64,000 bases of DNA from Schmidtea polychroa. Taxonomy: Eukaryota. Location of the stretch: NCBI GenBank assembly GCA_044892525.1, contig CM097885.1:184636001-184700000 (forward strand), in the 5' to 3' direction. Under the pieces are notes generated by a model, which was not told where the DNA came from, ran no database searches, and saw only the letters and a program-made list of their open reading frames with translations. Positions 38,701-64,000 of the stretch are shown one piece after another. The translations under genes and the position numbers were made by a program. Every line of letters begins with the position of its first letter. Within the stretch, counting starts at the first letter, position 1.

Positions 38701-38816
38701 TGAACATCACTGGGATGTTCACTTTTTGTAAACTTACCCATATTTAATAAACTGTCGACATCAATTGTTAGTGTCATTGTATATATATTCTTATTGTTCT
38801 TACAATTGTATATATA

Positions 38817-39737: not shown

Positions 39738-39742
<5 letters not shown>
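38817..39742 (-). mobile_element. Non-autonomous hAT with KIAA1586-like transposase N-terminus (mirror copy to 53747)
   Basis: TIR-like ends (C)AGTGGTGTGCTGG / CCAGCACCCCCTG, TATATATA on both sides; coding relic [29 protein letters not shown]. Confidence 0.75.
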
Positions 39743-39774
<32 letters not shown>

Positions 39775-39775
<1 letters not shown>

Positions 39776-41390
39776 TGATACAGAACAGCTTGAATTTATC
39801 ATGCTTCCACCAAATAATAGTGAATATTCAGATAAAGATGATGCTGCAAGTGACGCTGAAGTCTTCATAAAATCTTTTAGACATATGTACATTCCGAAGG
39901 CGCAAAGGTTCAAGTTCTTACTAAAAATGATAGAAGAGATCTTGATCTAGACGCCGAAATCGTAGTAGGTTCCCATCAGTATTCAAAAACACAATGTATA
40001 CGGGAAAAGAAACACCACCATAAGTGGATTCCTAGAGTACTAAAAAAACAACATAAAGTTTGAATGTCTATCAAATAATGCAGTCTTCCATAATAACAAT
40101 TTTGAGGGACAGTAATAGTAAGCCCATTGATCTCTTCAAATCATTCTTTACTGAAGATATAATGAGTCACATATGTAAGGATTTAGTCAAATATGTCACC
40201 GAGAAAGGTGAGCCAACATTTACTTTATCAGTTGAAAATCTCTACAAATATTTTGGAGTCCTTCTTTTGTCAGGGTATAATAAACTACCATTCAGAAGAA
40301 TGTACTGGGAGACTCGGCCTGATGAGAATAACTATGTAGTTGGCCAAGCCATGAATAGAAATAGATTTGAAAAGATTCATCAAATTTTACTAATAAATGA
40401 TAACATGAAAATGAATGTTAGTGACAAACTTTATAATCTTAGGCCTCTATTAGGTCATCTGAATAACAAGTTTAGTGAATTCGTAGAGCCAAAAGGCAGC
40501 GTTCTCTCTATTGATGAAGCAATAGAACTTCATTATGGCCACGAAGCAATTTATAAGATGAAAGCCAATTCGCTACGGATTCAATCTATGGTGTCTTAAT
40601 ATAATTTAGTCAAATTTTATCCCTGTACCGGTGCAGGAGATAAGATCTAAGAGAAATAAAGACTTTGCATAAACTTTGTACCTCAGGGATCTTGTAGTTA
40701 TATGGATAACTACTTTACTTCCCTCTTATTGATGGAAACACTTCTGAGTTGTAATATATTTTGTATTGGAACCATTAGAAGTAATTGGATTGAGAAAGCT
40801 CCTTTACAAGATATAAGTAAAGCGGATCGAGGTGCTTATTGTGAAGTTTAAGAAAAAGAAAGTGGAATAACTCTTATTAGGTGGAATGATAATAATCAAG
40901 TAATCATGGTTACAAATATGAAAGAAGAATCAATTTTTGAAGTAGGAAACTGCAAGCGATGGAAGAAACCGGAATGAAAGCATAGAAATATACCATAACC
41001 CATTATTGTGAAGTTGTACAACAAATGAATAGGAGGGGCTGATTTTTTTTAAACAAATTGAGAGGCCTTTACCGAATTAGAATTAGGTCAAAGAAATGGT
41101 ATTGGCAATTGTTTCATTTTTCTTTCAATGGGTAAATCTTTGAAACTTGTATCGTTATTTGACAAGAATATTTCTCTCTTGAATTTTAACAGACACATGT
41201 GGAAAAGAAACGAGGAGTTCGCTCTAAAACGAAGAAACAAGTTCCGGAAGTGACCAGATTTGATGGCAAAGATCATCTTGTAGAAAAAAATGATACTCAA
41301 AGGCGATGTACTGCATGTGGAAAATGTGCTAAATTTGTGAGCCTCGATTGCAGTGTAATACCAATACAATAACCAAATTTAGTATTGTTA
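39775..41390 (+). pseudogene. piggyBac-family (PGBD-like) transposase relic (mirror copy ~51050-52646, minus)
   Basis: PIDLFKSFF, YFGVLLLSGY..RRMYW, AMNRNRFEKI, KLYNLRPL, LSIDEA, YRIRIRSKKWYW, C-terminal RRCTAC; frameshifted. Confidence 0.85.
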
Positions 41391-41619
41391 CATATTTTGT
41401 CAACACTAATTCCCAGTGTGAGGCGTTTTGTAATTTGTATTAAATAATGGGATGATGTTGTGCATGTTTGATTATATGCTGAAATCCTTACTTATACATT
41501 AATTATTATTTTTTAGGAGCTCCTCAAACAAATTAACGTTATAATTTGTTTTAATAATATTTTTATTATAATTATAACATTATTATAACTTTATAATTAT
41601 TATTTTATTATTTTCAAGC

Positions 41620-41975
41620 TCATATTATTATTTTTCAAAATATTATTTTTTTCAAGGTCATATTATTATTTTTCAAAATATTATTATTTTCAATATCATA
41701 TTATTATTTTTCAAAATATTATTATTTTCAATATCATATTATTATTTTTCAAAATAATATTATTATTTTTCAAAATATTATTATTTTCAAGGTCATATCA
41801 TTATTTTCAAACTATTATTGTTTTCAAGGTCATATTATTTTTTTCAAAATATTATTATTTTCAAGGTCATATTATTATTTTATCATTTTCAAGGTCATAT
41901 TATTATTTTTCAAAATATTATTGTTTTCAAGGTCATATTATTATTTTTCAAAATATTAATATTTTCAAGGTCATA
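41620..41975. repeat. Imperfect ~32-bp AT-rich tandem repeat (mirror ~50460-50825)
   Basis: Units like TTCAAGGTCATATTATTATTTTTCAAAATATTATTAT. Confidence 0.85.
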
Positions 41976-42087
41976 TAATTATTTGTTCCTTATGTTTGAA
42001 AAACTGTAGTAGAGTTGTCAGAGTTGTGGTGTCATAATCGATGAATCTCATTCAGTGTATTTTTGAAATAAATGTTGTAAAACTCCT

Positions 42088-42092
<5 letters not shown>

Positions 42093-42172
<80 letters not shown>

Positions 42173-42174
42173 GT
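42093..42174. repeat. (ATT)n microsatellite
   Basis: Direct reading; the mirror position is an N gap. Confidence 0.95.
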
Positions 42175-43419
42175 TAGGGATAGGCCTGGGGCCTTGACTG
42201 TAAAATAAATAAAGAATTACTATATTTAGAAATGGTATAAATAAAATAATAAAGAATTACCGAAAATAAAATATAGAGTTAAATAATTACTATAATTAGA
42301 ATTAAGTAGTATATAGTAATATTTGATATTGCTATTACTATATATAGTAATTATAAAATTGCCATTAATATAATAAATAATTAAAATATAATATAAATAC
42401 TGGTTCAAAACGAGAACCAAGGGACGATAAAACATTGAGACAATAATTTGGACGATCAATTGAGGTCGTTAAAATCGAAAAGAAGCACTTGCAAAATTAT
42501 TATCATTTTAAAGAAAACGTGATTAAAGAATCACTGTGTTTAGTATAATTGATTCAAGGAATTTGTCAACAGTTCAAATTAAATTTGAATATTTCATCGC
42601 ACCAGACGAAATTCCGATTCAAATTTAGGATCAATTTCAAAGTTGAAAAATTGTCTATAAATTGCCAAACAGAATAAACAAAAGTCAGTAAGAAAATCTC
42701 TAGAGAATAATTGGAACAGATTTGTGACAGAAAAAGAAGGAGCCATTAATTTAGAAAAGGTAATAAGAGTTCATTATTCGTGTTGTGTAAGGATAAATTA
42801 TTATCCTTGTGAAGTGAATTAAAAAAAGCGAACACAAAGCACAGATAGCGGCTTTCGTGTTACCTGGTAGCCCCAAAATCAGGCCTCTTACTTCACCATC
42901 ATCCTTCCAATTTATTTAGCGATCGTTGTGCTACACAGGAGCCATCGATCTCTTGCAGGCTGTGGTAAACAGTAGGGAATAATAAATCCGTTTGCTTGTA
43001 TTCTTTACACCTTAATTGTAAATAATTTTGTAAATTATTAAATACATTTTTGTAAAAAGAGAAAAGAGTTTGTTCTTAACTTATACGCGCAACCACATTA
43101 AATATAACATATTTATATTTATTTTTATTTATCTATTTATTTTTTTAAGTCATTTATTGGAGTCATTGTGTTGAGATCTGTAGTCTNNNNNNNNNNNNNN
43201 NNNNNNNNNNNNNNNNNNNNNNNNNNNNNNNNNNNNNNNNNNNNNNNNNNNNNNNNNNNNNNNNNNNNNNNNNNNNNNNNNNNNNNNNNNNNNNNNNNNN
43301 NNNNNNNNNNNNNNNNNNNNNNNNNNNNNNNNNNNNNNNNNNNNNNNNNNTTTAATTTAGAAGTTTCATTATTATTATTTACTTAAATATTCATAAAACT
43401 TAATTTCTACGTCAATTAC

Positions 43420-43790
43420 ATGATTTTCAACATTTTCATCATTTGCATGATTATTTTAATAATTTTTAACATTTTCATAATTTTCACGATTTTCAACATT
43501 TTCATGATTATTTCAGGAACTTTTCATCGAATATTTTTCAAAGTATTATTTTCAAAGTTTTTATCAATATTATTGTTATTATAATTATTACTATTATTAT
43601 TATTTTTTGCGAAATTTTTATTATTTTATTTTTGATGTTTTATTATTATTTACTTCATAATTCATAATTCATAATTTTTAACGTTTTCATCATTTTCATC
43701 ATTTTCAATATTTTCACGATTTTCAACATTTTCAGGAACATTTTCATAATTTTCACGATTTTCAATATTTTCATGATTATTTTCTTCAAA
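43420..43790. repeat. ~9-bp TTTTCA(N)3 tandem repeat (mirror ~48640-49030)
   Basis: Direct reading; the mirror has an extra 18-bp block. Confidence 0.8.
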
Positions 43791-43880
43791 ATTCTTATTT
43801 TATTTATAAAATAAATTTATTATCATTTTCAAAATTATTTTCAAATTTCTTATTATTTATTTTCAAAATATATTATTATT

Positions 43881-44131
43881 ATTATATATACTCCTAGTCT
43901 ATCCGACAAAATATTTTGTCCCCCTATGGGTACTGCTCACACTCAACAGGTTGCAAGGGTACTAGTTAAGCTTATTATTATTGTTATACAATATGATGTT
44001 ACTTAGACATTTGAAGGTTGAACCATGGTTACAATTTCTACATTTTTAAAACGCTAATTTGATTGGCTATTTAAAGTATTACCCATAGAGGGAGAAAATA
44101 TCTTGTCGGATAAACTCAGAGTATATATAAT
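43881..44131. mobile_element. ~250-bp MITE with ~55-bp imperfect TIRs
   Basis: TATATACTCCTAGTCTATCCGACAAAATATTTTGTCCCCCTATGGGTA versus TACCCATAGAGGGAGAAAATATCTTGTCGGATAAACTCAGAGTATATA. Confidence 0.7.
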
Positions 44132-45240
44132 AAAACGAATTAACAATAACTCCATCAAATTGAATCAGTCAAATTAACACAAATTTGATAAAAAATCTTA
44201 TTCTAAATGGTAAGAAGCGTAAAGTCGAAAGATAATTTTAATAACACCGAGATAAATTAACAATATTATTCTCAGATGGTAAGAATCTTCATTAAAGTGA
44301 GGAAATTATTCATTATTCTGTGATAAATTAATAATAAAATTCAAAATTGTTAAAATAAGTGTTAGAATTATTCATTATTGGATTATGGAAGGTCAATGAA
44401 AATATACTAAGAGGTGGCATGGATATATATTAATATTTTTTAAAATTATTTCATAAAATTCATAATTTTCATAAAAATTATTAAAAATGATCACTTTAAT
44501 AAAAGATATTTAATACAATTTAAAAAATATTTGTCGGGAGGATATAAGTGAAAATAATTAGTGGGAAATCGAGAACCGGCTGCTATAAGTGACGAGGATA
44601 TATAAATAAAATTATTTCTATTATATGAGTTACTAACTAATTAAAATATTTTAATAATGTGATAACTTTTATTTTGCAACTCCAAAAGTATTCATTCAGT
44701 GAATCGTTGTTTACCACTGTTTTTTCTAAATACATTAAATAACTTTAAAATGCATTTATCATAATTAAATAAATCAATCGAATATTGAATAGAGGAATGT
44801 TTAAAAATTTTTAAAATATTTATGATTTCCTTATCAGTGTAAGTATCATGATTATTTATAAAATCTTCAACTGTGCTGTTAAAAAATTTCAATGAACGCT
44901 TATCTTCGGAATAGGTTGGACTTAATTTTTCCATATTTCTAGTAGGACTTCTTTGCTATAAATGACATATATAAAAAAATATTGACAAAATAATAAAGTT
45001 ACTAAATGTGTTTTGTGATTTACACAATCATATTCATACTTGTAAAAATCAGTAATAAATAAATTTCTTAATGACTAAATTACTTTTGTTTTTACATTTA
45101 TAAAAATTGAGATAGCCAATCAAATTAGCGTTTTCAAAATGTAGAAATTGTAACCATGGTTCAACCTTCAAATGTCTAAGTAACATCATATTGTATAACA
45201 ATAATAATAAGCATGACTAGTACCCTTGCAACCTGTTGAG

Positions 45241-48200
45241 CAGGCCCGTACCGTCGGGGGGGCAGGAGGGCCCGGTCCCCCCAAACGCAAGTCTAGCCCC
45301 CCCCCCCAAATAAAAAAACGGACATGAATAAAAAATTACATTCAATATGTTTAATAAAAGAAAAATTGCTATCGTGCACACATGCATTGACGTGGGTGTG
45401 CATGAGTTGCACATGTAGAGGTTTATGTAGTGTGGACGGGGGTAGGATGTTCCATCTATCTGTTTCACTGGAAGAGACTGGCATGTGAAGTCAGTGGCGT
45501 GGGTAGGGTGCATGCTGTCTGTCTTTCCTGCCTCACAGGCAGTAACAACGCATGGAGGCATGATTGAGTGTCAGAGCACGGAGTGGGTGCATTGTGGTGT
45601 TTATACGATGGTAGAGAGATAGGCCAATGAGAGCACATCACATGTCATTATACTCAACTCACTCCTATGGCAGAGTGACATGTTAATTGATCATATTTTG
45701 TAACATTATTTTCATCGTATTAGAACATGTCGACACAAAAGAGTATCATGAATTTCTTCCAAGTCATTCCAAAGAATTCTGTGACTTCAGTCACTTCATC
45801 TAGTGATAGTATCTCTGCTACTATGTCCTCAACTTGTGCTAGTCCTTCATCTGTACCTGCTATTTCATGTATCGGTGACAGTGCAGTGATGTCCTCATCT
45901 TCTTGTGCACCTGCTAAGACTCTGTCATCTACTAAATGTGATCTGGGTGAAGAAATGCCACGCCAGCCAACTGATGTAAATTTCCCAAAGACTTCGTTTG
46001 GTTCAAGGGAACGCTCATTTTCGTCTGTGTGGTATAATGGAAGACCATATTTGGAGTACTCTATTGAGAAAGATGCAGTCTTCTGCTTTTGCTGTAGAAA
46101 ATTTTCATTGCCCGGCTCTGCTGGCGAAAGTGCTTTCAGAACAGGAGGATTCCGAAATTGGAAATCGGCTTTAGAAAAAGGAAAAGGTTTTCAAAAGCAT
46201 AAATCTTCTGCTGGTCACATCCATGCCATGGAACGCTGGAAAGAGAAACAGCTGAGATGTGAAAAAGGTGAGGAAGTTTGCACTTTGATTAATGAAACAC
46301 AGCTGAAGAACAACCGTTATTATGTCAACGAAATCGTTGACGTTGTAAAGTTTCTTGTGACAAATGAATTAGCCTTTCGTGGAGACAGTTTCAGTAGAGA
46401 TGATATTGATGAGGATGATAAGCTTCCGTGTGGTCTAGTTTTACGTCTCTTCGAATACACTGTTAAGAAAAATCCTGAGCTGGCTCGAATCATTAAAACG
46501 ATTCCCAAAATTGCCACGTACACATCACCTCGAATTCAAAATGAAATTATCGCGTTAATGGCATCAATAGTGCAAGAGTCAATTGTTAAGAAGTGCAAGT
46601 CTGCGGATGTTGAATATTTTACTCTGAAGGTGGATGGTACCAAAGATCGAACAGGGACTGAGAATGTGTCGATTGCCATAAGGTTTGTCTCAGCAGGACA
46701 ACCTCAGGAGCACTTAATCTGCATTTCCCGAACAATTGCTCTCAATGCAGAGGCCTTCACAGATGTAATTTTGACAACCTTGAAAGAGGCTCAGTTGGAT
46801 CCTAAAAATATAATTTCCCAATGCTATAATGGAGCCGCTGTTATGTCTGGACAGCATGGTGGGGTGCAGGCCTTGTTTCAGGAGCGTCTACAAAAAGAAA
46901 TTCCGTATGTCCATTGCTTCAACCACAAGTTGCATTTGGTTGTTGTGTGTGCCGTTTCTGAGTGCCAAAAACTGCGGGACTTCTTCGACATATGCAGAAA
47001 CTTATACACATTTTTGTCATATCCTAAGGTTGCGGCCATATATCAAGGCGATAAATTGACACGGCTCATGGAACATCGTTGGACAGGGCACTTGCAGACG
47101 ACTCAGGCAATAACAACTAATTATGATTCAATTGTGAATTTGCTTGAGATGTGTTCTAGTAGACATTCTCACTTTTCAATTGATATTCAATTGGAAGCTA
47201 CTGGACTCTTGCATCGAGTCAATGAAGTGGAGTTTCAGTTCATTGCACACATGGTGCTCTCATTGCTGACTATCCTTGAAACAGCCAACAATAGCTTGCA
47301 GGGTCAAGCAATGGACCTTTCTTCAGCATGTGATGTTATGGATGCCGTCATAGAGCGCATTCGCAGCCTACGCAATGAAGATGAATTCCAAGTTCTTTTT
47401 GGGAAATTCGAAGGTCAAATGGATATGGAACAGACATCAAAAAGAAGAAGAACTCAGATGAACTCAAAATTAGACAACTTCATCGTGTTCGGATCTGTGG
47501 GACAGCCAGAACACCAGGCCTTGCCTATCAGATGCGCATATCGCCAGATGTATTACGAAGTCGTTGATAGGACTCTGCAGGAACTAACAAAACGCTTCGG
47601 TGTCACCAACAGAAGCCTTTATAAGTCTCTTGCATGTTTGAAGACTGATCACGCAAACTTTTTGAATATTGAGGATCTAAAGACTTTAGCGACACTGTGT
47701 TGCGTGGACCTAAGCGAAACCCAACATTAATTTGAAACTGCAAAGGTTTTCCTATTGAAGAGAGCCAGTACTGTGACAAACGTTCATCAGTTAGTGCAAG
47801 AACTGTACTCATACCGAGATGCTTTTCCATCTGTCTATCGTCTTGCAGCTTCTGCACTGACAATCGGTGCTACAACTGCCACATGTGAGGCGACTTTCAG
47901 TACTTTATCTCGTGTCTTAACTCCCTTTCGTACGTCGATGATCCATTCTCGTAAAGCCAACCTTGTATTGCTCTCATTTGAAAGTGACATCAGTAATAAC
48001 ATCAAATCTGATGAGTTTCTTCGGCGGTTTCATGAAATGAAAAATCGTCGACTGCAGCTATTTTGAGTCATGTCGATATCTCACACACGTAATTTCTTTT
48101 TTCTGGATCTAATTCCTGTATAATTTCTATTGCACTCACCTTTAGTTTTCAAATCTGTGTGACTGTGTGTTCTGTCTTTGTATGTCCAATTGTCCGTCGT

Positions 48201-48475
48201 GCAAATACATGCAGCTATTTGTTTTTTGTGTTTGTTCCTAAAAAATGTGCGAAAATCATTTCCTATATACTAGTATATGCAATAATGTAGCAAAATAATG
48301 CTCAGACAAAATGTCGATTTTGCTTTCCTTTTTTTTAAATTGAACATTTCGGAGTGCAAAGTGTGAGTAGTGACTAGTCTGTTTTCATAAAATACTTAGT
48401 TTACACGAGAATTACTGGCCCCTTTAATGAGAGTCTGGGCCCCGCCCCGTCAAAAGGTGTCACGGTACGGGGCTG
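45241..48475 (+). mobile_element. Full-length hAT transposon (3235 bp)
   Basis: 14-bp TIRs CAGGCCCGTACCGT / ACGGTACGGGGCTG (1 mismatch); perfect 8-bp TSD CTGTTGAG; empty site at 43952-43959 in the other arm. Confidence 0.97.
45727..48066 (+). pseudogene. ZMYM1-like hAT transposase with one in-frame stop (47728) and a D-to-N catalytic change
   Basis: TTF-type Zn finger (LEYSIEKDAVFCFCC), YTSPRIQNEII, KVDGTKD, CYNGA (normally YDGA), HCFNHKL, RW, CEATFSTL dimerisation motif; 47755-48066 is in the same frame. Confidence 0.92.
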
Positions 48476-51400
48476 CTGTTGAGTGTGAGCAGTATCCATA
48501 GGGGGAAAAAATTTTTTGTCGGATAGACTAGGAGTATATATAATAATAATAATAATATATTTTGAAAATAAATAATAAGAAATTTGAAAATAATTTTGAA
48601 AATGATAATAAATTTATTTTATAAATAAAATAAGAATTTTGAAGAAAATAATCATGAAAATATTGAAAATCGTGAAAATTATGAAAATGTTCCTGAAAAT
48701 GTTGAAAATCGTGAAAATATTGAAAATGATGAAAATGTTGAAAATGATGAAAATGATGAAAACGTTAAAAATTATGAATTATGAATTATGAAGTAAATAA
48801 TAATAAAACATCAAAAATAAAATAATAAAAATTTCGCAAAAAATAATAATAATAGTAATAATTATAATAACAATAATATTGATAAAAAAACTTTGAAAAT
48901 AATACTTTGAAAAATATTCGATGAAAAGTTCCTGAAATAATCATGAAAATGTTGAAAATCGTGAAAATTATGAAAATGTTAAAAATTATTAAAATAATCA
49001 TGCAAATGATGAAAATGTTGAAAATCATGTAATTGACGTAGAAATTAGGTTTTATGAATATTTAAGTAAATAATAATAATGAAACTTCTAAATTAAANNN
49101 NNNNNNNNNNNNNNNNNNNNNNNNNNNNNNNNNNNNNNNNNNNNNNNNNNNNNNNNNNNNNNNNNNNNNNNNNNNNNNNNNNNNNNNNNNNNNNNNNNNN
49201 NNNNNNNNNNNNNNNNNNNNNNNNNNNNNNAGACTACAGATCTCAACACAATGACTCCAATAAATGACTTAAAAAAATAAATAGATAAATAAAAATAAAT
49301 ATAAATATGTTATATTTAATGTGGTTGCGCGTATAAGTTAAGAACAAACTCTTTTCTCTTTTTACAAAAATGTATTTAATAATTTACAAAATTATTTACA
49401 ATTAAGGTGTAAAGAATACAAGCAAACGGATTTATTATTCCCTACTGTTTACCACAGCCTGCAAGAGATCGATGGCTCCTGTGTAGCACAACGATCGCTA
49501 AATAAATTGGAAGGATGATGGTGAAGTAAGAGGCCTGATTTTGGGGCTACCAGGTAACACGAAAGCCGCTATCTGTGCTTTGTGTTCGCTTTTTTTAATT
49601 CACTTCACAAGGATAATAATTTATCCTTACACAACACGAATAATGAACTCTTATTACCTTTTCTAAATTAATGGCTCCTTCTTTTTCTGTCACAAATCTG
49701 TTCCAATTATTCTCTAGAGATTTTCTTACTGACTTTTGTTTATTCTGTTTGGCAATTTATAGACAATTTTTCAACTTTGAAATTGATCCTAAATTTGAAT
49801 CGGAATTTCGTCTGGTGCGATGAAATATTCAAATTTAATTTGAACTGTTGACAAATTCCTTGAATCAATTATACTAAACACAGTGATTCTTTAATCACGT
49901 TTTCTTTAAAATGATAATAATTTTGCAAGTGCTTCTTTTCGATTTTAACGACCTCAATTGATCGTCCAAATTATTGTCTCAATGTTTTATCGTCCCTTGG
50001 TTCTCGTTTTGAACCAGTATTTATATTATATTTTAATTATTTATTATATTAATGGCAATTTTATAATTACTATATATAGTAATAGCAATATCAAATATTA
50101 CTATATACTACTTAATTCTAATTATAGTAATTATTTAACTCTATATTTTATTTTCGGTAATTCTTTATTATTTTATTTATACCATTTCTAAATATAGTAA
50201 TTCTTTATTTATTTTACAGTCAAGGCNNNNNNNNNNNNNNNNNNNNNNNNNNNNNNNNNNNNNNNNNNNNNNNNNNNNNNNNNNNNNNNNNNNNNNNNNN
50301 NNNNNNNNNNNNNNNNNNNNNNNNNNNNNNNNNNNNNNNNNNNNNNNNNNNNNNNNNNNNNNNNNNTTATTTCAAAAATACACTGAATGAGATTCATCGA
50401 TTATGACACCACAACTCTGACAACTCTACTACAGTTTTTCAAACATAAGGAACAAATAATTATATGACCTTGAAAATATTAATATTTTGAAAAATAATAA
50501 TATGACCTTGAAAACAATAATATTTTGAAAAATAATAATATGACCTTGAAAATAATAAAATAATAATATGACCTTGAAAATAATAATATTTTGAAAAAAA
50601 TAATATGACCTTGAAAACAATAATAGTTTGAAAATAATGATATGACCTTGAAAATAATAATATTTTGAAAAATAATAATATTATTTTGAAAAATAATAAT
50701 ATGATATTGAAAATAATAATATTTTGAAAAATAATAATATGATATTGAAAATAATAATATTTTGAAAAATAATAATATGACCTTGAAAAAAATAATATTT
50801 TGAAAAATAATAATATGAGCTTGAAAATAATAAAATAATAATTATAAAGTTATAATAATGTTATAATTATAATAAAAATATTATTAAAACAAATTATAAC
50901 GTTAATTTGTTTGAGGAGCTCCTAAAAAATAATAATTAATGTATAAGTAAGGATTTCAGCATATAATCAAACATGCACAACATCATCCCATTATTTAATA
51001 CAAATTACAAAACGCCTCACACTGGGAATTAGTGTTGACAAAATATGTAACAATACTAAATTTGGTTATTGTATTGGTATTACACTGCAATCGAGGCTCA
51101 CAAATTTAGCACATTTTCCACATGCAGTACATCGCCTTTGAGTATCATTTTTTTCTACAAGATGATCTTTGCCATCAAATCTGGTCACTTCCGGAACTTG
51201 TTTCTTCGTTTTAGAGCGAACTCCTCGTTTCTTTTCCACATGTGTCTGTTAAAATTCAAGAGAGAAATATTCTTGTCAAATAACGATACAAGTTTCAAAG
51301 ATTTACCCATTGAAAGAAAAATGAAACAATTGCCAATACCATTTCTTTGACCTAATTCTAATTCGGTAAAGGCCTCTCAATTTGTTTAAAAAAAATCAGC

Positions 51401-54400
51401 CCCTCCTATTCATTTGTTGTACAACTTCACAATAATGGGTTATGGTATATTTCTATGCTTTCATTCCGGTTTCTTCCATCGCTTGCAGTTTCCTACTTCA
51501 AAAATTGATTCTTCTTTCATATTTGTAACCATGATTACTTGATTATTATCATTCCACCTAATAAGAGTTATTCCACTTTCTTTTTCTTAAACTTCACAAT
51601 AAGCACCTCGATCCGCTTTACTTATATCTTGTAAAGGAGCTTTCTCAATCCAATTACTTCTAATGGTTCCAATACAAAATATATTACAACTCAGAAGTGT
51701 TTCCATCAATAAGAGGGAAGTAAAGTAGTTATCCATATAACTACAAGATCCCTGAGGTACAAAGTTTATGCAAAGTCTTTATTTCTCTTAGATCTTATCT
51801 CCTGCACCGGTACAGGGATAAAATTTGACTAAATTATATTAAGACACCATAGATTGAATCCGTAGCGAATTGGCTTTCATCTTATAAATTGCTTCGTGGC
51901 CATAATGAAGTTCTATTGCTTCATCAATAGAGAGAACGCTGCCTTTTGGCTCTACGAATTCACTAAACTTGTTATTCAGATGACCTAATAGAGGCCTAAG
52001 ATTATAAAGTTTGTCACTAACATTCATTTTCATGTTATCATTTATTAGTAAAATTTGATGAATCTTTTCAAATCTATTTCTATTCATGGCTTGGCCAACT
52101 ACATAGTTATTCTCATCAGGCCGAGTCTCCCAGTACATTCTTCTGAATGGTAGTTTATTATACCCTGACAAAAGAAGGACTCCAAAATATTTGTAGAGAT
52201 TTTCAACTGATAAAGTAAATGTTGGCTCACCTTTCTCGGTGACATATTTGACTAAATCCTTACATATGTGACTCATTATATCTTCAGTAAAGAATGATTT
52301 GAAGAGATCAATGGGCTTACTATTACTGTCCCTCAAAATTGTTATTATGGAAGACTGCATTATTTGATAGACATTCAAACTTTATGTTGTTTTTTTAGTA
52401 CTCTAGGAATCCACTTATGGTGGTGTTTCTTTTCCCGTATACATTGTGTTTTTGAATACTGATGGGAACCTACTACGATTTCGGCGTCTAGATCAAGATC
52501 TCTTCTATCATTTTTAGTAAGAACTTGAACCTTTGCGCCTTCGGAATGTACATATGTCTAAAAGATTTTATGAAGACTTCAGCGTCACTTGCAGCATCAT
52601 CTTTATCTGAATATTCACTATTATTTGGTGGAAGCATGATAAATTCNNNNNNNNNNNNNNNNNNNNNNNNNNNNNNNNNNNNNNNNNNNNNNNNNNNNNN
52701 NNNNNNNNNNNNNNNNNNNNNNNNNNNNNNNNNNNNNNNNNNNNNNNNNNNNNNNNNNNNNNNNNNNNNNNNNNNNNNNNNNNNNNNNNNNNNNNNNNNN
52801 NNNNNNNNNNNNNNNNNNNNNNNNNNNNNNNNNNNNNNNNNNTCGCTCCGGCTCGCGCGCGCCGGTTGTTAAATTAATTAAATTGCCAAACAAAAATTTA
52901 AAACTAGCCGTTAATTACTTATTTTGATGGTAGTAGGCTTTGATATTGGAATTTGTGTTATATATAGTTTTGTATTGCTATTACAATTTACATAGTCTTT
53001 CATATTAGGCTGGAATGTATTAATGTGTACACGTTTTAGTTTAATAAAATAAAATTAATAGCTAGCTAGTTTAATATACAAATATTATAACTAAATTTAC
53101 AATTTCTAATAGGTAAGTAATAATTATTATTAAAATATATTAAAACAAATTAGGAATACTAATTTTATGTAAATTATAGTGATTTACCCAAAATGAAGAG
53201 AAAACAGGGAAATTTATTGTCGTTTTTTGCTCCGCAGCCTACAATGACTGAAAAAACAATTGGCAACAGATTAAACAATTCTGCAGTTACACAAATAAAC
53301 TCAAATATCATAACACCTGATTTTAACGAACATATTGAAGAAACATCTGTTGTAACTGTAGAAATCGAGGAAGATTTATTTTCAAATATTAATACCCAAT
53401 TGCCTGATTGTTGGAATGAAAGCAAGTAAGTTTATTTACAGAACAATATAAATGGCTGATAATAAAAGATGGCAAATTAGGATGTAAAGATTGTTCGCAA
53501 ATTAAATGTTTAGCAACTGAGACAGAAAAAAGTACATGTTTCTAAGGAATAGATTTCGTGTTCCATAACTCCAAATGGAACTAAAAAAGATAGTAGACAG
53601 GCTTCTCTTCGCAAAAAAATTAAAGAACATTCCTTATCTAACGCACACTTGAAAATTCAGGATATTATGAAACAGGCAGTGGTGTGCTGGAGCCGGCTCG
53701 CTCCGACTCGCGCGAGCCGGTTGTTACGGATTTACCAGCACCCCCTGTATATATACAATTGTAAGAACAATAAGAATATATATACAATGACACTAACAAT
53801 TGATGTCGACAGTTTATTAAATATGGGTAAGTTTACAAAAAGTGAACATCCCAGTGATGTTCACTAATTTTTGTTTCTCAATTTCTTTGCATATTCTTTC
53901 AAATTTCGATGACTCCTGGTCTCATTCTCCCTTTATGAATCATTGTTTTCCTTTTTATACCATTGTTGAGTTTTTAATTAGATAAATATTAACGTCGGTG
54001 TTTCTCACTCCGCGTGTTCTCTAAAAACAATTAGATAAACACTCAACGTATATTTGTATTCGAATTCGTATAATCTACAATTTACAAAACTCTGAATATC
54101 GCAATAAAATGCCTATTCTGGCTATTCAATATGCTTTGTTGTAACCAGTTTGGTTCTGCATATTCACTACCAATAATAACCTCTTTTCATTACTCCTTTG
54201 ATCTATCTCGATTCTTTTATTTTCCTTTCCGTTAATTCTATCTTCTGACTTTAATTTTTGCTTTAATTCTACTGTCGAATTATTCGTCCTTACTTGAGGC
54301 AAAATGCCGACTGTTTCTGAGTTTCAGCTTCCTTAAAAAATTGAATATAATTGATTAATAGCATTTCGACTAGATCGTCCCCTTGATAAACTTTACCTTG

Positions 54401-54979
54401 CAGCTTTTTCATCTTTTCTCCTGCGAAAGAAATAATTAATTGTCTCACTGTGCGTCTCCCTTGTGTTAATCATCTTCCCGTTTTAGCATTACTCATGTTG
54501 TCATGATATTGGTTTTCCAAAATCCATTTTGCTTACTTTTTTTCTGTTTACTTAACTCAGGTTTTCCTTAATTAATTAATTGACGATTTTCTGTTTTAGT
54601 ACGCTTTCTAGCATTTCGACCCTTTATGAACATTTTCTGATGGAAGCGTTCTCGCCATGATCTTTCCGATCATTTCCTTTACATCTAACCCGTTTTCAAA
54701 TTTTAATTCGATGACTTCTTACTATTCAATTTTCGATATTTCTTTTTTAATTATTTGGAAATTTTTAATTTAAGAACTCCAACACCATTATATGTGAAAC
54801 AATTGCGAACTAAATCCCACACTATTACGATAATAATCATTGGTAAATCATTGGAAATTATTTTTTATTAGTGACTTCCAAGACATCGTTAATTGTCGAT
54901 TAGAGGTACCTGAACTTTTAATAAAATATTATCCCTATTTGACCAACCACCACTGTTTTCGGCAATCTCGTTTTCGTTA

Positions 54980-55331
54980 GAAAAACAAAAATTATGTGAA
55001 AAACTTAAAAATTTCGTGACCTACATAAAAATACTATTATAATCATTTAATAATTATTTCATTTTCAGGAATCCTCAACAAATATAAAGTCGTAATCAAG
55101 TTTTTGAAATATTATAATAAAGATGACCTTATTATTTTATTAATGCAATTCTGTCAACCGAATTGGCTTGGTTGGCTTGTAAGAGCACTTAGAATTTATT
55201 TTCAATATTACTGCCACGCTCTATTGGTAGATAATAATTTTAGATAATAATAGTAAGTAATAATTTATTAATAGGCTTTTATCAAAATTATCATCAAAAT
55301 GGAATCCATTGATAGCGCTTTAAATCAAAAA
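54980..55331 (+). repeat. Inverted copy of the MFS upstream region and first ~11 codons
   Basis: Matches the reverse complement of ~56822-57180, including ATGGAATCCATTGATAGCG. Confidence 0.9.
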
Positions 55332-55458
55332 TGTTTACATTGAAAACTGATTGTAACTTTTATGCAATAATTTTATTACAAGATTTAAACAAAAGAAACT
55401 AATATGATTTATTGCAAATAAATTTTTATTAAAATTAAACTAAAAAGTAAAATTTGTT

Positions 55459-56853
55459 TTAACTTTTGGCGGTTTCATTTAAGTTTCTATCTTTGGTTTC
55501 ATATGGAAGCAGAAAGCTCACACAAAAGCATATAAAGTTAACTCCCAATATGATCATTAAACCGATTAACATTGAATACTTATAAATTACTATATTCACT
55601 ATAAATGGGGATAGGACCATACCAATCCTTCCAGCTGCGCTACAAATTCCCATTCCTAAGCACCGCACGGACGTAGGAAATATCTCAGATGCGTACATAA
55701 TGATTAGGTTGATATTCATACTAGCGATTCCTCTAATAATAAATAGCAAAATATTCAACTGCAAAGAATTTAAACAAAAATTCAAAAGAAAAATTCCAGT
55801 GGCAATGAGAAATAAAAAAATCGGAAGAGTTTTCTTTCGGCCAATAAAATTGATGAGAATTAAATAAAATGGAATGAAAATCATTTCCGCAGATGCTGAT
55901 ACGAGAATATTTTTATAGTTTTCAAAACTCAATTTCATGCAGCAAGAATCATCGATCGCAGTGCTATTTTGATGGCTTAGGACGGTGGAGAATTGATTCC
56001 AATTTTGTAGGCATCTGTGAGGAACATTGGCAATTATCGGAATTACTAGAATGACGCTGAAGTAAGTAAAGTAATTGACCAATGAAATTATGGAAACAAG
56101 AATTGTTGTTGAATAATAATTTGGATGTATTAAATCTTTGATATTGGATTTGGTGACTGGCGGTTCATGGATATCTTTGATCGTTTCGGCTCTGTTCCAT
56201 TCAGCAACAATGTTCATCACTCTCAAGCAATCTGATTTGCCTTTATTTAACATCAAATATCTCGGTGACTCAGGAACTGGAATTAGAAATCCGGTTAGGA
56301 TAATTATTATAATTGAGGGTATCAATACGAAAATCCTCCAACCGAATCTAGGAATGATAATGTACGCCAGCAAGGTTTCTATTTGGCAACCAAATCCAAT
56401 AATTACCACATTGACCGCAATAAAAATGACTCTATCTTTCATTGGAGACCATTCAAAAAAGAAGGCCAAAGCTGTTATTGGTAAACTTGCACAAAATATT
56501 CCAATAATGAATTGAAAAACTGTCAGCCAGTAAATATCCTGAGAAATAGCTGACAAAAATATGCAATAACAATATAAACAATTCGATAGAATCAACACAG
56601 TTTTTCTTCCATATTTATCACTAAATTTCCCGAGAGTTAAACTTCCTATTATCATTCCAGAAAAAATAATTGTGTTTAAAGTAAATACTTCTATCGCACT
56701 CATCTTCCAATAGCAACTGAGAACCGGACCGAGAAAAGTAAAAGTAACCAATTGAAAATCGAATATTCCCGAATGGCATGCCATTAGTATCGCTAAATAT
56801 ACATGGAACCTGCCAAATCCGATTTGATTTAAAACGCTATCAATGGATTCCAT
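55459..56853 (-). CDS. Major facilitator superfamily transporter, SV2/SVOP-like, intronless
   Basis: 464 aa, ~12 hydrophobic segments, GFGRFH, SDKYGRK, PESPRYL, GRK, EIFPTSVR..G, LPYETKDR. Confidence 0.92.
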   Translation of the reverse strand: MESIDSVLNQIGFGRFHVYLAILMACHSGIFDFQLVTFTFLGPVLSCYWKMSAIEVFTLNTIIFSGMIIGSLTLGKFSDKYGRKTVLILSNCLYCYCIFLSAISQDIYWLTVFQFIIGIFCASLPITALAFFFEWSPMKDRVIFIAVNVVIIGFGCQIETLLAYIIIPRFGWRIFVLIPSIIIIILTGFLIPVPESPRYLMLNKGKSDCLRVMNIVAEWNRAETIKDIHEPPVTKSNIKDLIHPNYYSTTILVSIISLVNYFTYFSVILVIPIIANVPHRCLQNWNQFSTVLSHQNSTAIDDSCCMKLSFENYKNILVSASAEMIFIPFYLILINFIGRKKTLPIFLFLIATGIFLLNFCLNSLQLNILLFIIRGIASMNINLIIMYASEIFPTSVRCLGMGICSAAGRIGMVLSPFIVNIVIYKYSMLIGLMIILGVNFICFCVSFLLPYETKDRNLNETAKS

Positions 56854-58450
56854 TTTGATGATAATTTTGATAAAAGCCTATTATTAAATTATTATTTACT
56901 ATTATTATCTACCAATAGAGTGTGGCAGTAATATTGAAAATAAATTCTAAGTGCTATTACAAGCCAACCAAGCCAATTCGGTTGACAGAATTGCATTCAT
57001 AAAATAATTAAGTCATCTTTATTATAATATTTCAAGAATTTGATTACGACTTTATATTTGTTGAGGATTCCTGAAAATGAAATAATAGTATTATATAATA
57101 GTAAATAATAGTAAAATGAAATTAATAGTATTTTTATGTAGGTCATGAAATTTTTAATTTTTTCAAAATATTTCTGTTTTTTCAAAGATTTTTTATGTAC
57201 TTTACGTCATATTGATCATATTTCAAGTAGGTCAAATCCTCGTAAAAACATAGTCCCCACTCGCACAATAAATATAAAATAAATTTTATTAAATAAATAA
57301 GTAGGTCATACAGTTTTAATAACTAAATAAAATTCATCTCCACTGGCACACTATTGAAATTATTCATGTCAAGACAATAAATAACATCTCTATATAAATA
57401 TCTACTTTAAAACATTTTCCTCTGGAACATTCTATATGTAATATGTAGGTCAAATCAATGAATAAAATCTTTTATTTAAATATTATTGGTTTTATATTGA
57501 GTGTTCCTGACACAGTATTTCAGCTATCAATGGCCCATTTCGAAGAGATTTTCTCAGAGTACCCGAATTTCTATTGTGATGATCCAAGGTATTACAGGGG
57601 TGTTAGTAGTGAATAGTAAGGACTCCAGGACACTTTCAAGGTCATCCCAATGTCCAGATCAAATATAGGTCAATCGAATCATTTTTTTTTAATTAACATT
57701 TTATTTAATTACTTCTTTTTAATTTTTTTTTTTTTTTTTTTTTTTTTTTCATTTTAATTTTATTAATTAATTATTTTATTATGTTTTATTTTAATTTATT
57801 ACATTTAATTAATTTATTAGTTTATTAATATTTTATNNNNNNNNNNNNNNNNNNNNNNNNNNNNNNNNNNNNNNNNNNNNNNNNNNNNNNNNNNNNNNNN
57901 NNNNNNNNNNNNNNNNNNNNNNNNNNNNNNNNNNNNNNNNNNNNNNNNNNNNNNNNNNNNNNNNNNNNNNNNNNNNNNNNNTTNNNNNNNNNNNNNNNNN
58001 NNNNNNNNNNNNNNNNNNNNNNNNNNNNNNNNNNNNNNNNNNNNNNNNNNNNNNNNNNNNNNNNNNNNNNNNNNNNNNNNNNNNNNNNNNNNNNNNNNNN
58101 NNNNNNNNNNNNNNNNNNNNNNNNNNNNNNNACAAGAGGTAAATTATAACGATAATATTTCAATTTGAATAAAATTTTAATTAGTAATTATTCAATTTGA
58201 ATAAATTTTAATTAGAAATTATTTAATTTATTATAAAATAAAACGCTGAGTTAATTTTAGATAAACTGGATATTAATATTTCGGAAAAAATAAATAAATA
58301 AATAAAATAAACACAAAAATAATATTATTTACTTGAAACTAATTATCTAAATTAATTGGACAAATGAATAATTAAATGATAAAACACATTTTAATTAACT
58401 AAGTCAAACAATTCACAATATATATTTTATTATTCACATAAATTTAATTG

Positions 58451-61400
58451 TTAAAGTGCTTGTTTCGATTTGCATTCATTTCTAGACATAGCAGTTGCAA
58501 TATGCATTTGGCGAATCTTATAGTGACCGTAGGCATAACTTTCATTACAATTGTACCAATACCTTTTATCGTCCAAACATTGGAGAGCTCGTTTTTCTGT
58601 CATGAAAGTATACAACTGATGATTGACACTTCCTATTCTTTTTTGTGGGATGCTCACTGTTCCACCATCAGTATACACTTTTTTATAGGCTTCATGTGTA
58701 AGATTAGAGTTTGTAAGTCTTATTCCTTTGGCTTTTAGAGTGTTTTTATCGCCTTGGAGTGAGTAGCACTTGGGTCGAAGAAACACCCATTCTTTATATT
58801 GATTTCCTTTATTCTCATCCTTGAATTTCCCGATTACCGAACAAATTTTATCTGAGAACAATGGATCAGTCACTGGATAATTTGAAGTATCTAGGAGCCC
58901 ATCGGCAATCATTTTTGGATATAGTTGTAAGCGTAAATCTACATTTTTACACTCTAAAAAGAAGGAATCTGTGTCACCGGCTACGATATTAATTTGACAA
59001 TTGAATTCTTCTCTATAACTCTGTAGTTCTTTATATTGAAACTGGTACATGCGAAGTTTGGATAAATCAAGTACGGTTTGTCCAATATACATTGGTCTAT
59101 CTAAACACACAATTTCCTTATTGAGTATAACAGCAATGAGATCATCCGCAATCTTGATGCTACGACGAAACATAGGATTACTACAATAAGTTATCAATCT
59201 TTTGCTTTTGCTGCATAATCTCAAATTTATACGTTTCTTCAAGTTTTCCACAGTTTTACCGTATAAACTGTTGTTCTTTAACTTATAATAATCTCGCTGA
59301 AACGAATCTGTACTAGCTGCTCTCATTTTGGTATTGTAATCAATATAACCTTTGAAAATAGCCACTTGCTTGAATTCTACAGCACGATTAACTTTTGTGA
59401 CTTTTGCGCCGTAACTCAACCACTCTGTCAAAACTCTACCATTAACTACATAGTTTTTCTTAGGCTCATGAGTTAACAACAGCTTTTCAACTTTACTACC
59501 AGGTGGATAACAAAGCTCAGGAGCTATAGGTAAATCATCTAGTTTATCTTGTATACTATCAGGAATGACGATGTCAACCTCTAGAACATATCCAAGATCT
59601 CCATCAAACTTATCCCCATTTGCACATCTTTCAACAATACCATTCATTTCAGTCTGATCATTTATCCATCTAAATTCACCAACAGGAAGTTTTTGCGACA
59701 GCGCCCATCCATATAAATTATTAACATCTAGGTATGACATTTGTGTTGATTCATCAGCTTCAACATGATGTTTGTTGATAAATGTCATTCCACCACGAAT
59801 ACCAGCTTCAAATAAACGGTAAAGCTCTGGATCTTGAATAAGTTCTACTGGTTCAGGTAACTGTTTAATAGCTGATGCCCAACTTAATCCGGGTATGGAA
59901 ACAAACGATAGAGCCTCAAGTCCATCTTCGTCAAATGTTTTTTCTCTGAAAGCTTCAAAAACATCGGCCAACAGAAAAACATCCAACTTGAGATATACTA
60001 GCATGTAATCTAGCAGTGTCTCACAGTTGTATTGTCGCCAGATTCGATTTGCATGTATATAATCTTCTTGACTAACTCCCTCCCAAATCGGTGGTAATTC
60101 TGTTATTGACTGTAAAACATCCATTGATGTAGCCATATCATAAGGAAATATGCCTTTACCAGTTATTAAATGCGAATTGAAAATCTTTGAAGTAAGTGGA
60201 AGACGTGGCAAGTTTTTTGATAAATTTGCCAAGCTGCTATTTAAAAATTGTAAAGAATCAATGAATCTAATTCTTCTGCCTTTCGATGTCGCTGTAAGTG
60301 TGAGAAACTTTTCTGTTGATTGAGGAATAACAATTAAATTCCAATCGGGGAATTTTCCAATTGCATATTTTAATATATGATGAATGTCATATCCACGAAG
60401 ATTATGAAATACAACAGGTAAAGACGGATTGATTCTTCTAGCCAAATTACAATCTTGACACGCTGCTCCGAGATATTGACCGGTAAAATGATCATGATCC
60501 CGAACAGGTATATTGATAATTTTTTTACAAAGGTAGCAATGAGTTTGATTCGTAAATTCTTCCTGCTGTTCCCAAGTGAGTTCCATCATTTCCTTCGATC
60601 CATTAATTTTATACCACGGATAAACTATGTCTGTAGCTATATCATCCAATGCTTGTATAAACTGAATGATACAGTTTTTCCCAACAAATGTTTCATTTCG
60701 AATCGGACAACCTTGATGAAGAAGCACAAATTCAGATGCAATCGGCTCATGTTTTTGGAAGTGCTTGTCATCTAGAGGTAATATTGATTCAAAGTCCGCG
60801 TAGACAACAAACTGCTGTTTTATAGTTTTACTCCAGTCTTTAAATTCGATATATTTATTCTCTGGCATTGAGTATAGAGTCGTCCGCTCCACATTCTTCC
60901 TACAAAGACCTATATGTCTTTCAAAAGCAGGACGTTTTTGAAACCCATGAAGACACGTATGACACCAATGTGATTGGATTCTGACTCCTTCTACTCTATC
61001 TCTGTAATTGAGCAGTCGATCGAGATTAGTTACAGCCAAAAAATGATAATTTAATTCTAAAATTTAGTTAATATTTTTAATGATTAAAAGAAATATTACC
61101 TTCTTCAATCAATAAGAGATATAATTGACATCCCGTCGAAGTACTTCTATATACCAAGTCAACGAACGGATTCTTGAAAATATCATTAGTTTTTTGTTTA
61201 ATTGGATCTTTATTATATTTGAGAACATTGATCGCTAGATTAGGATTCATTGCCTCAAATTGGCAAATGTTAACCAACTTCATTGGAAACCAATCTGATT
61301 TCCATTTTAACTCTAAATATATATATTTTTAGAATGATATAAATATATATTACCACTTAAATTATATTTCATTACTCTTTCTCTGTGATGTTTTATGTCA

Positions 61401-62423
61401 TCATAATGTAATACGGCCAGTATGCTATATAAAAAGCAGAATTGATCATTATTTTGAACATTAACTAAAGCCTGGCAGTTTTTCAGGTAATTTGGCGTTT
61501 TAATGTAACTTGAACCTAAGTAAATATCTTGATTTATATATATAATAATGTAAATAAACTTACCAGATACATGTATTATGTCTGATAATTTAGTTAAAAT
61601 CATAGTAACTTCTAATATTTTATGAATTCTCCACCCACTACTTTGTTGAGTGTATTTCTCCAACTTTTCTTTTAATTTTTCAATTCCATCATTAATAAAT
61701 GAAGATGACATTGTAATTGCTTTATTCGACAAACACCATTTTTTAATTTCACCATCCTCTTTGATAAACTCTGCACAAAGTCCAAATTGGATTTTTACTG
61801 TACCCATTCGTTGAATATGATCTTCTATTTCTCTGATGAGACAATCTGGAACAACAATGTCAGGAGAATTAATTGCAGATACATCGCTTGTCAATTCAAC
61901 ACGAGAACCATTTAAGTCAGACTCCCGACGTGGACACAATTGTATGTTAGAGTCTCCATTTCCGTAAAATATTGACTTTCGTTTTGTGGTGCCAGAGTTT
62001 TGTCTAACTATATTTATAATTAATATTAAACAACTTAAATAACATAACTTGTAACATATTCTTTAATCTGCTTAGGATCGTATGATGTATTCATTTTCGG
62101 TTGTACTATAAAAAATTAATAATTGTTAATAGTAGAAAGAGTATTACTTTTAGTGATCATCCTGCTCTTCGTTTCTTCGAATCTTCTAAGATGGTGTCCG
62201 TGTTGTCGTACAAACATTAACCACCTACCTGGTGATATAATGAGACATTCCGGACATATGTAACCCGATAAGGTAGAGTCATTTATCTTGAAATATGATG
62301 TAACTGATTTACAGTTCTCCACATCTTCATGACTTTCGGCAATACAAAATTTATATAAACTGCATCCGTTCACTAAAAGAAAATAATCATTAATATTAGA
62401 TAGAGAATAAAAAATTATTCACT
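58451..62423 (-). CDS. Polinton/virus-type protein-primed DNA polymerase B with endonuclease VII-like insert; predicted 7 exons, 1235 aa
   Basis: VYADFES, FHNLRGYD, LDVFLL, DVNNLYG, KLKNNSLYGK, GDTDS, CYLC..RDHDHFTG..GAACQDCN all intact. Predicted GT-AG introns 62373-62422, 62106-62147, 62008-62048, 61516-61563, 61313-61353, 61057-61099 join the ORFs into one frame (3708 nt). Confidence 0.9.
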
Positions 62424-62495
62424 TATATAAGTTAAATTAAAAGTTTAAATGACAAACATTTGAAAAGTTACTGCTTATATATTACACATGATTAA

Positions 62496-62583
62496 ATTCT
62501 GACCAATCAAAATCAAGGAAGGGGTAGGAAAAATAAATATATTCTGACCAATCAAAATCAAGGAAGGGGTAGGAAAAATAAAT
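62496..62583. repeat. Two identical 43-bp direct repeats (period 45) with a CCAAT box
   Basis: ATTCTGACCAATCAAAATCAAGGAAGGGGTAGGAAAAATAAAT x2, ~75 bp upstream of the predicted PolB start. Confidence 0.9.
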
Positions 62584-62739: not shown

Positions 62740-63140
62740 TCATAAAATTGTAACAAAATAATAACATATTTCAGATAAATTTTCAACAGTTGTAAAATAT
62801 TTAAACAAATTGTAACAAGATTAGAAAATATTACAACAAAGTAGTAACATATTTCAGAAAATTTCAACAAAGTTGTAAAATATTTATCAAATTGTAACTA
62901 AAATAATAAAAATATTGCAACAAAGTAATAAAATAATGATGTTAATTGGGACAAATCAATACATTATTTCGAAGACGGACAACAAATTAAAAAGAATATT
63001 GTAATAAATTGTGAAGTCTTTCAGTAAATTACAACAAAGTAATAACATATTTCGGAAATATTTCACCAGATGTAAAATATTTAAGCAAAATGTTATAAGA
63101 TTATAAAAATATTGCAACAAAGTAATAAAATAATACAACA
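62740..63140. repeat. Degenerate 60-80-bp tandem repeat
   Basis: Recurring AAATTGTAAC..AACATATTTC..TTGTAAAATATTTA. Confidence 0.6.
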
Positions 63141-63154
63141 TTTTAAACTCTAGA

Positions 63155-64000
63155 TCAATCCATTTTATAGAAAATTAAATTTTATCTCTATAATATATGA
63201 ATAAATATACAAGGAAATTACGTTAACTGTATGAAAAATACAAATTTATCGTAAAAAACATGTGTGTATTACACACAACATACAAGACATAATTTTTAAT
63301 CAAGCTATTTTATAGAAAATTAAATTTTATCTATATAATATATGAATAAATATTCAAGGAAATTACGTTAACGTATAATAAATACAAATTTATCATAAAA
63401 ACATGTGTGTATTACACACAACATACAAGACATAATTTTTAATCAAGCTATTTTATAGAAAATTAAATTTTATCTATATAATATATGAATAAATATTCAA
63501 GGAAATTACGTTAACGTATAATAAATACAAATTTATCATAAAAACATGTGTGTATTACACAAAAAAAAAACAAGATACATAATTTCTAATCAATCCATTT
63601 TATAGAAAATTAAATTTTATCTATATATTATATGAATAAAATCCTAAGAAAATTACGTTAACTGTATGAAAAATACAAATTTATCTTAAAAACATGTGTG
63701 TATTACACACAGAACAAGATACATAATTTCTAATCAATCCATTTTATAGAAAATTAAATTTTATCTATATATTATATGAATAAAATCCTAAGAAAATTAC
63801 GTTAACTGTATGAAAAATACAAATTTATCGTAAAAACATGTGTGTATTACACACAAAGCGACAAACTAAAATTGTAATTGAGCCATTTTATAGAAAATTA
63901 AATTTTATCTATATAATATATGAATAAAAATCCAAGAAAATTACGTTAACCGCGCGAAAAATACAAATTTATCGTAAAAACATGTGTGTATTACACACAA
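63155..64000. repeat. ~144-bp tandem array, about 6 units, runs off the window
   Basis: ATTTTATAGAAAATTAAATTTTATCT anchors at ~63161, 63306, 63449, 63596, 63740, 63884. Confidence 0.95.

Follow-up and report, generated by a model that had tools for sequence, protein, structure and literature searches.

In a 64,000-nt window of the Schmidtea polychroa genome (GCA_044892525.1, CM097885.1:184,636,001-184,700,000), a minus-strand gene with six short introns probably encodes a protein-primed DNA polymerase of spliced type, carried by a 13-kb palindromic Polinton derivative. The derivative holds two copies of the gene and lacks genes for integrase and capsid; self-replication from its AGTAGT ends is likely, as is the use of an integrase borrowed from full-length Polintons of this genome. 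Positions below are those of the window unless prefixed G000 or L. Because the element has Polinton ends and a polymerase but departs from Polintons in integrase, capsid, repeat length and introns, it is a derivative and not an autonomous member of the group, and it works like a Polinton end-replicon. The palindromic, polymerase-only architecture is its most unusual feature and was missed by an earlier reading of the window (the original prediction), which had described the gene.

The element spans 13,386 bp (G000:C1:184693605-184706990) and consists of two arms of ~6.54 kb around ~300 unique bases, with one polymerase gene per arm. The left arm, a terminal inverted repeat (TIR) on the plus strand, begins at 57605, occupies the window to 64000 and extends 148 bases past it; it is 99.7% identical to the right arm. 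Its inner part (63109-64000) is an array of ~144-bp repeats that runs to a 348-bp central unit just past the window (L012:125-472). The termini read AGTAGT...ACTACT and lie between the two copies of a 6-bp target-site duplication (TSD), GGTGTT, at 57599-57604 and directly after G000:C1:184706990. A 6-bp TSD was present in 18/18 full copies examined; for Polintons, termini of the (AGT)2 or (AG)3 type and TSDs of 5-8 bp, typically 6 bp, are expected. Arms were ~6.0-6.7 kb in most copies measured, outside the Polinton TIR range of 100-1,500 bp; the total length lies inside the Polinton range of 13-25 kb.

The element occurs in about 140 copies: its exact 22-nt end was found 140 times in forward and 141 times in reverse orientation in the genome (control, 0). 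The first 100 of these 281 ends formed 46 pairs and left 8 unpaired; the median spacing of the pairs was 13.1 kb, and for 39 pairs it fell between 11.5 and 14.1 kb. The polymerase gene, whose copy number had been proposed as a check, had at least 104 copies in the 781-Mb genome whose proteins are 99-100% identical, mostly as divergent pairs 8-9 kb apart. Eight odd or unpaired loci that were inspected were truncations or nested insertions, with no full-length parent among them.

No open reading frame (ORF) of at least 120 codons besides polymerase pieces was seen in the left arm, which the right arm mirrors, the centre being only ~300 bp. ORF inspection of arm and centre revealed no integrase gene and no capsid, packaging ATPase or protease gene; the capsid and ATPase matches listed fall in other families. 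An absence of integrase and capsid had been reported for the window; it extends to the part of the element beyond 64000. The statement that no TIR was visible in the window was mistaken, as the gene lies inside the 6.5-kb terminal repeat that begins at 57605. At L012:8385-9120, 1.4 kb to the right of the element, lies a further piece of the inner repeats together with a segment resembling the central unit.

Exon 7 matched the Pfam family DNA_pol_B_2 (PF03175; E 4e-31), with a weak Endonuclease_7 match. The exonuclease and polymerase motifs, originally described as intact, were located in this exon; we take them to be Exo I-III, Pol A-C and a KxY-type motif. A fold with a pLDDT of 92 was predicted for a stretch of a sister family that corresponds to exons 4 to early 7. 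This stretch matched adintovirus and bidnavirus-type polymerases, and its fold gave structure matches to Y-family polymerases over ~119 columns. Polinton terminal proteins have been related to the Y-family polymerase fold and are followed by a vOTU protease (10.1101/2024.03.18.585575). When mapped onto the window gene, exon 4 corresponded to the first folded domain, with intron 4 at the domain boundary and introns 5 and 6 inside the second domain. For the vOTU, a Cys motif was found in exon 5 and a His at the start of exon 7, the latter invariant in 68 aligned sequences; the PDB matches listed contained no direct OTU structure match. Taken with these models, the domain order appears to be zinc-finger-like, terminal-protein-like, vOTU-like and exonuclease-polymerase.

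The six introns had been predicted at 50, 42, 41, 48, 41 and 43 nt, all phase 1 and restoring one frame, and they are present as described: all are GT-AG, all phase 1, with 10-17% GC. The exons sum to 3708 nt, or 1236 codons counting the stop, in agreement with the predicted frame of 1235 codons, and the internal exons (225, 57, 444, 162 and 213 nt, also as predicted) are each open and each a multiple of three. Upstream, 62474-62583 on the minus strand is a likely promoter: it holds a TATA-like box together with a pair of 40-bp units that carry a CCAAT box, and comparable boxes lie ahead of the polymerase both in a sister palindrome and in a metagenome locus (L174). Intron 1 (62373-62422) is 50 nt long here and 47 nt in some copies; it interrupts the start codon as A|TG, and an alternative upstream donor at 62471 yields an identical A|TG. 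Exon 2 (62148-62372, 225 nt) carries an N-terminal Cys/His zinc-finger-like segment common to relatives. Intron 2 (62106-62147, 42 nt) contains an in-frame stop. It is followed by the 57-nt exon 3 (62049-62105), a linker whose homology is not clear, and by intron 3 (62008-62048, 41 nt), which is required by a change of frame and constant in length in 36 arms. At each of introns 1-3 a short direct repeat that begins AGT lies in offset positions at the donor and the acceptor, its length being 6, 4 and 5 nt, respectively; clean loss of one direct repeat would break the present frame.

The remaining exons cover the folded domains. Exon 4 (61564-62007, 444 nt) would encode the terminal-protein-like domain, as modelled from the sister-family stretch, and intron 4 (61516-61563, 48 nt) lies at its boundary with the vOTU-like domain, at the same site as in metagenome loci L173 and L174. 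Exon 5 (61354-61515, 162 nt) holds the start of the vOTU-like domain including the Cys motif, and exon 6 (61100-61312, 213 nt) its middle. Between them, intron 5 (61313-61353) is 41 nt here and 41-118 nt across copies, and is not in L173 or L174. In one contig there was a faint sign that intron 6 (61057-61099, 43 nt), whose position is common to L173 and L174, had been removed. Exon 7 (58451-61056) contains the end of the vOTU-like domain with its His, the endonuclease-VII-like insert, the exonuclease and polymerase domains, and the stop. All of these features lie on the minus strand.

Each exon was aligned separately to the 45 best uninterrupted relatives of at least 1130 residues. At intron 4 the alignments of the flanking exons met with a gap of exactly one codon in 40/45 relatives, and at intron 6 in 35/45; at intron 5 the gap was one codon in 10 and three codons in 27 of the 45. 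The homology test fails for introns 2 and 3, whose surroundings are a variable linker. The exon 2 alignment began at residue 2-3 in five relatives, which fits the split start codon.

Variation among copies followed the same division into exons and introns. Across 18 copies, 16/21 indel events fell inside the 265 intron bases, or 6/11 once microsatellite events were collapsed (p 3e-5); two of the five exonic indels kept the frame and three were private to a single copy. GT..AG was retained in 213/216 arm-introns although intron lengths vary by non-multiples of three. In public contigs, 11/12 of the indels listed were intronic, the twelfth being an addition of three bases. All exons were open in 29/36 arms. 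Between subfamilies, the ratio of nonsynonymous to synonymous substitution (dN/dS) was 0.26-0.29 for exons 2-6 and 0.15-0.16 for exon 7, which indicates that the spliced frame is under purifying selection. Two metagenome loci at 55-56% identity had GT-AG phase-1 introns that match introns 4 and 6 to the codon; intron 5 had no counterpart in them. Homology, indel pattern, selection and shared positions all support the six introns as real, on comparative sequence evidence.

The probability of six phase-1 introns had been put at ~0.0007, a value that holds only if phase 1 was named beforehand; allowing any single phase gives 0.012. The latter value is based on the phase mix of animal introns. Inspection of intron phases in related element genes, a check proposed at the outset, yielded further phase-1 introns in sister families: 11/12 of the Polinton introns identified in the genome were phase 1. 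This tally combined the window gene, the leaders of B' palindromes and family D counted once, a strict filter on 7 full-length elements, and manual cases. B' palindromes and family D have three phase-1 introns each, and the strict scan added a phase-1 intron in an accessory gene, another in an integrase motif, and one phase-0 intron. The integrase intron, phase 1, GT-AG and 42-126 nt long, cut the QTDLG-KEF motif in 8/10 copies (families B, B' and E; e.g. L122 with L100; L054; L160); in 2 family-D copies no acceptor was found within 400 nt by pattern. Among plausibly independent introns, 7/8 were phase 1 (p 0.001 at 30%).

Because introns 4 and 6 are shared with relatives and 11/12 introns are phase 1, the phase-1 bias is real and lineage-wide, and it is weaker than a p of 0.0007 implied. 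It is partly compositional and partly forced by mini-exon symmetry, since a mini-exon arising within a phase-1 intron must be 1-1 symmetric. Introns would arise at sites after G (or A), and in the AT-rich genes of these elements G mainly occupies the first position of the codon; in the window gene, 45% of the G's are at codon position 1. A special, biased mechanism of intron gain, as first suggested, was not shown, given that the introns are not independent draws and the bias stems partly from base composition. The uniformity is most likely an inherited trait of the Polinton clade. Introns of this kind proved common in part within this clade, and not among Polintons in the literature covered.

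Uniform phase might instead be a selected device, in which symmetric exons allow modules to be skipped or exchanged and the polymerase to be made with or without its primer domain. Exons 2 and 4 each correspond to one domain, intron 4 falls at the terminal-protein/vOTU boundary, the 11/12 tally fits, and L174 is without the zinc-finger exon but still begins via a phase-1 intron. However, introns 5 and 6 interrupt the vOTU-like domain, which exon skipping would ruin, and the phase-1 introns of the integrase motif and the accessory gene are the sole ones found in their genes and so flank no skippable exon. Owing to these introns within the putative protease domain and lone introns in other genes, the device fits poorly, and we regard it as unlikely.

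Several families of full-length Polintons are present in the same genome and have genes for capsid (126 scored matches), ATPase and integrase. Families that bear integrase and capsid terminate in AGTAG and are flanked by 6-bp TSDs. In families B, B', D and E the polymerases were ~55% identical to exon 7 and uninterrupted at the positions of introns 2-6. In quick trees, corresponding to the phylogeny proposed as a check, the window polymerase grouped with metagenome proteins (P0001/P0002 in one tree, SH-aLRT 99; with P0009/P0014 in another, SH-aLRT 93), apart from the four helper families. From this placement apart from the helper families, the window polymerase is, as far as these sequences indicate, a separate lineage and not a deletion product of any helper seen here.

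The centre of the element pointed to those other families. In the 348-bp central unit, the initial 281 bp of a family-D Polinton end (89.6%) are followed by the first 24 bases of that end in inverted orientation, which close the unit. In subfamily 2 the centre is a family-E-type end joined at the same arm position; its arms are shorter and its centre longer, and the total length is equal. A B' palindrome (G000:C1:84521782-84538764; L083-L085) of 17.0 kb has a polymerase with a three-exon phase-1 leader in each arm, a TSD, and ends of its own family facing inward at the centre. By analogy, the window family may have originated like this palindrome, through inward-facing central ends. In a recombinant palindrome (L086-L087), B' polymerase arms surround inner repeats 92-95% identical to those of the window family. 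In a family-A Polinton (G000:C1:165718433-165735219; L051-L053) the terminal repeats have grown to 3.2 kb with the capsid gene inside, so that it is present twice.

Arms of one copy were far more alike than arms of different copies. In the gene region, sister arms differed by a mean of 0.039% (maximum 0.124%) and arms of different copies by a mean of 1.76% (median 2.3%, minimum 0), making sister arms ~45-fold closer. Copy-private substitutions were in both arms in 72 cases and in one arm in 25, the nearest arm was the sister arm for 30/36, and stops or frameshifts were present in both arms in 3/4 damaged copies. Such arm-shared private changes and lesions are expected if one arm is copied from the other, and the near-identity within a copy suggests copying via a self-paired strand. 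Host splicing would give a polyprotein of zinc finger, terminal protein, vOTU and polymerase, and the element would replicate itself from its AGTAGT ends with its own polymerase. After excision the displaced strand would self-pair along the arms, one arm being copied from the other. A helper integrase supplied in trans, as is needed when the element itself has no integrase gene, would produce the 6-bp duplication. The first duplication of a terminal segment would have gone through inverted repeats provided by the two foreign Polinton ends that point inward at the centre.

Several observations weigh against this interpretation, in its replication, splicing or phase components. Arm identity could instead reflect gene conversion after insertion, or assembly polishing, and 6/36 arms were nearer to an arm of another copy than to their own sister. 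Contigs of presumed RNA runs read through introns 2 and 3 unspliced. The question of a full-length parent rests on the 100 of 281 ends listed and the 8 odd loci inspected. Conditioned on the real junction letters of the gene, six of six phase-1 introns has a probability of ~0.005 (fractions multiplied by hand), so that composition leaves this much; for 7/8 independent introns, p rises to 0.02 when phase 1 is set at 0.45. A phase-0 Polinton intron did turn up in the survey, which comprised the strict filter on 7 elements plus manual cases.

A quite improbable account is that the element is passive and non-autonomous: helpers would move and copy all of it, the polymerase would be a recent passenger, and the arms would have been evened by gene conversion or polishing. 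Young copies can stay open-framed without selection, and some arms of different copies are identical (the minimum of 0%). Yet dN/dS was 0.15-0.29 between subfamilies, with an excess of third-position changes, frame-breaking indels were almost wholly intronic, the polymerase clustered with metagenome proteins away from the helper families, and the arms were not fully identical, some copies being asymmetric. The self-replicating derivative remains our preferred reading. A more far-reaching and tentative proposal, which we hold as possible but doubtful, makes the element a natural satellite of animal Polintons: a polymerase-only palindrome that would capture the terminal origin and packaging region of different helper families at one fixed central junction and stay close to the helpers in length, so that it could be carried in their capsids, within a clade with old, conserved, almost exclusively phase-1 introns. 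Bearing on this proposal, and only indirectly, are the helper-family ends at the centre and an element length near that of the helpers.

Mirror-image chimeras can arise in long-read libraries, and the palindrome might then be an assembly artefact of fold-back reads; this is very improbable, as 18/18 copies had different flanks with matching 6-bp duplications, the centre is unique, asymmetric and subfamily-specific, and nested insertions and one-sided deletions were seen. Least credible of all is the domesticated polymerase offered by the original prediction, a Polinton-derived host gene with introns gained after capture, which we rejected: short host-type introns, intact motifs and purifying selection would suit it, but at least 104 copies at 99-100% identity, element ends with TSDs at unrelated sites, and the tolerance of damaged copies exclude it. 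Its other suggestion, an intron-rich mobile or viral lineage, was borne out by ~140 copies with TSDs, by introns 4 and 6 in distant relatives, and by phase-1 introns in sister families.

Other features of the window were noted alongside the element. At 37806-54758 lies a second inverted repeat, ~17 kb long, whose arms approach 100% complementarity. Each arm contains part of a piggyBac-type transposase (40057-40599 and 51839-52381), and a DUF4371 (hAT-like) ORF occupies 45724-47730 between them; a brief inspection showed neither matching Polinton ends nor a TSD. An intronless 472-codon MFS transporter ORF (55459-56877, minus strand) sits between inverted repeats of ~200-350 bp (54974-57188) and is possibly a gene carried by a mobile element. 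Past the window, L012:7200-7720 resembles a small host gene interrupted by one short intron; its NGGW motif, as in Bcl-2-family proteins, makes it at most a candidate for that family. A Gypsy-type element (10501-18857 and 32093-34051) encodes a mononegavirus-like fusion glycoprotein in frame with protease and reverse transcriptase; the region includes a second gag copy, LINE pieces in between, and direct repeats at 7187 and 34218. Planarian Burro elements have been described with such a fusion-glycoprotein arrangement (PMC6431247), and the element would thereby point to a planarian host.

Among known systems, the closest are Polintons or Mavericks (Eupolintoviridae) and their polymerase pPolB1. 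Polintons are described with TIRs of 100-1,500 bp, integrase and capsid genes and lengths of 13-25 kb (PMC10748475), and intact vertebrate Mavericks with intronless ORFs, (AGT)2 ends and 6-bp duplications (PMC8097293). The likeness lies in a protein-primed polymerase with exonuclease and palm regions and putative terminal-protein and vOTU regions (PMC10748475, PMC8097293, 10.1101/2024.03.18.585575), (AGT)2 ends, the 6-bp TSD and the total length. The window element differs in its 6.5-kb TIR, in having the polymerase inside the repeats and thus twice, in lacking integrase, capsid, ATPase and protease, and in its six introns, as against an absence of introns from intact vertebrate Mavericks (PMC8097293). 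Surveys that demand polymerase and integrase together, as in PMC10748475, would miss it. Conserved introns in the polymerase and in the integrase motif run against the intron-free picture drawn from intact vertebrate elements, and ORF-based annotation shortens Polinton proteins where such introns occur.

Dinoflagellate eupolintoviruses also combine spliceosomal-type introns with Polinton-like elements, but their introns are recent insertions of introner transposons (PMC12166617), whereas two of the window's introns are shared with distant relatives and all are of a single phase. The six introns showed no evident mutual likeness by eye, with short direct repeats at introns 1-3 only and no genome-wide intron-sequence search made; on present comparisons they look unlike introners, and introns 4 and 6 look old. 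Caenorhabditis Polinton remnants likewise place pPolB1 beside a terminal repeat without integrase, but they are remnants at 10 loci with 744-bp TIRs (10.1101/2024.01.15.575659), whereas the window family is palindromic and amplifying. Cytoplasmic and mitochondrial linear plasmids are capsid-less replicons retaining a protein-primed polymerase (10.1101/2024.03.18.585575). They do not integrate with Polinton TSDs, unlike the window element, which is nuclear, intron-bearing and almost wholly inverted repeat.

A palindromic polymerase-only architecture was not described in the literature searched, which lay outside Repbase, subscription papers and supplements. New here are the polymerase in both arms, the equalisation of arms, the exchangeable helper end at the centre and the intron positions shared with distant relatives. 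Adenovirus offers a parallel as a protein-primed linear replicon in which a non-terminal pair of inverted repeats drives replication-induced rearrangement (PMC2518115, citing Steinwaerder 1999). The rearranged adenovirus genomes were engineered and without viral genes, whereas the window element is natural and integrated, keeps its polymerase and is present in ~140 copies. Products of such rearrangement are reported to have both ends duplicated around the repeat-flanked insert. Polinton replication has so far been inferred largely from gene content and analogy; with nearly all of its length in TIRs, equalised arms and a foreign central end, the element may provide a natural record of replication by strand displacement and self-pairing.

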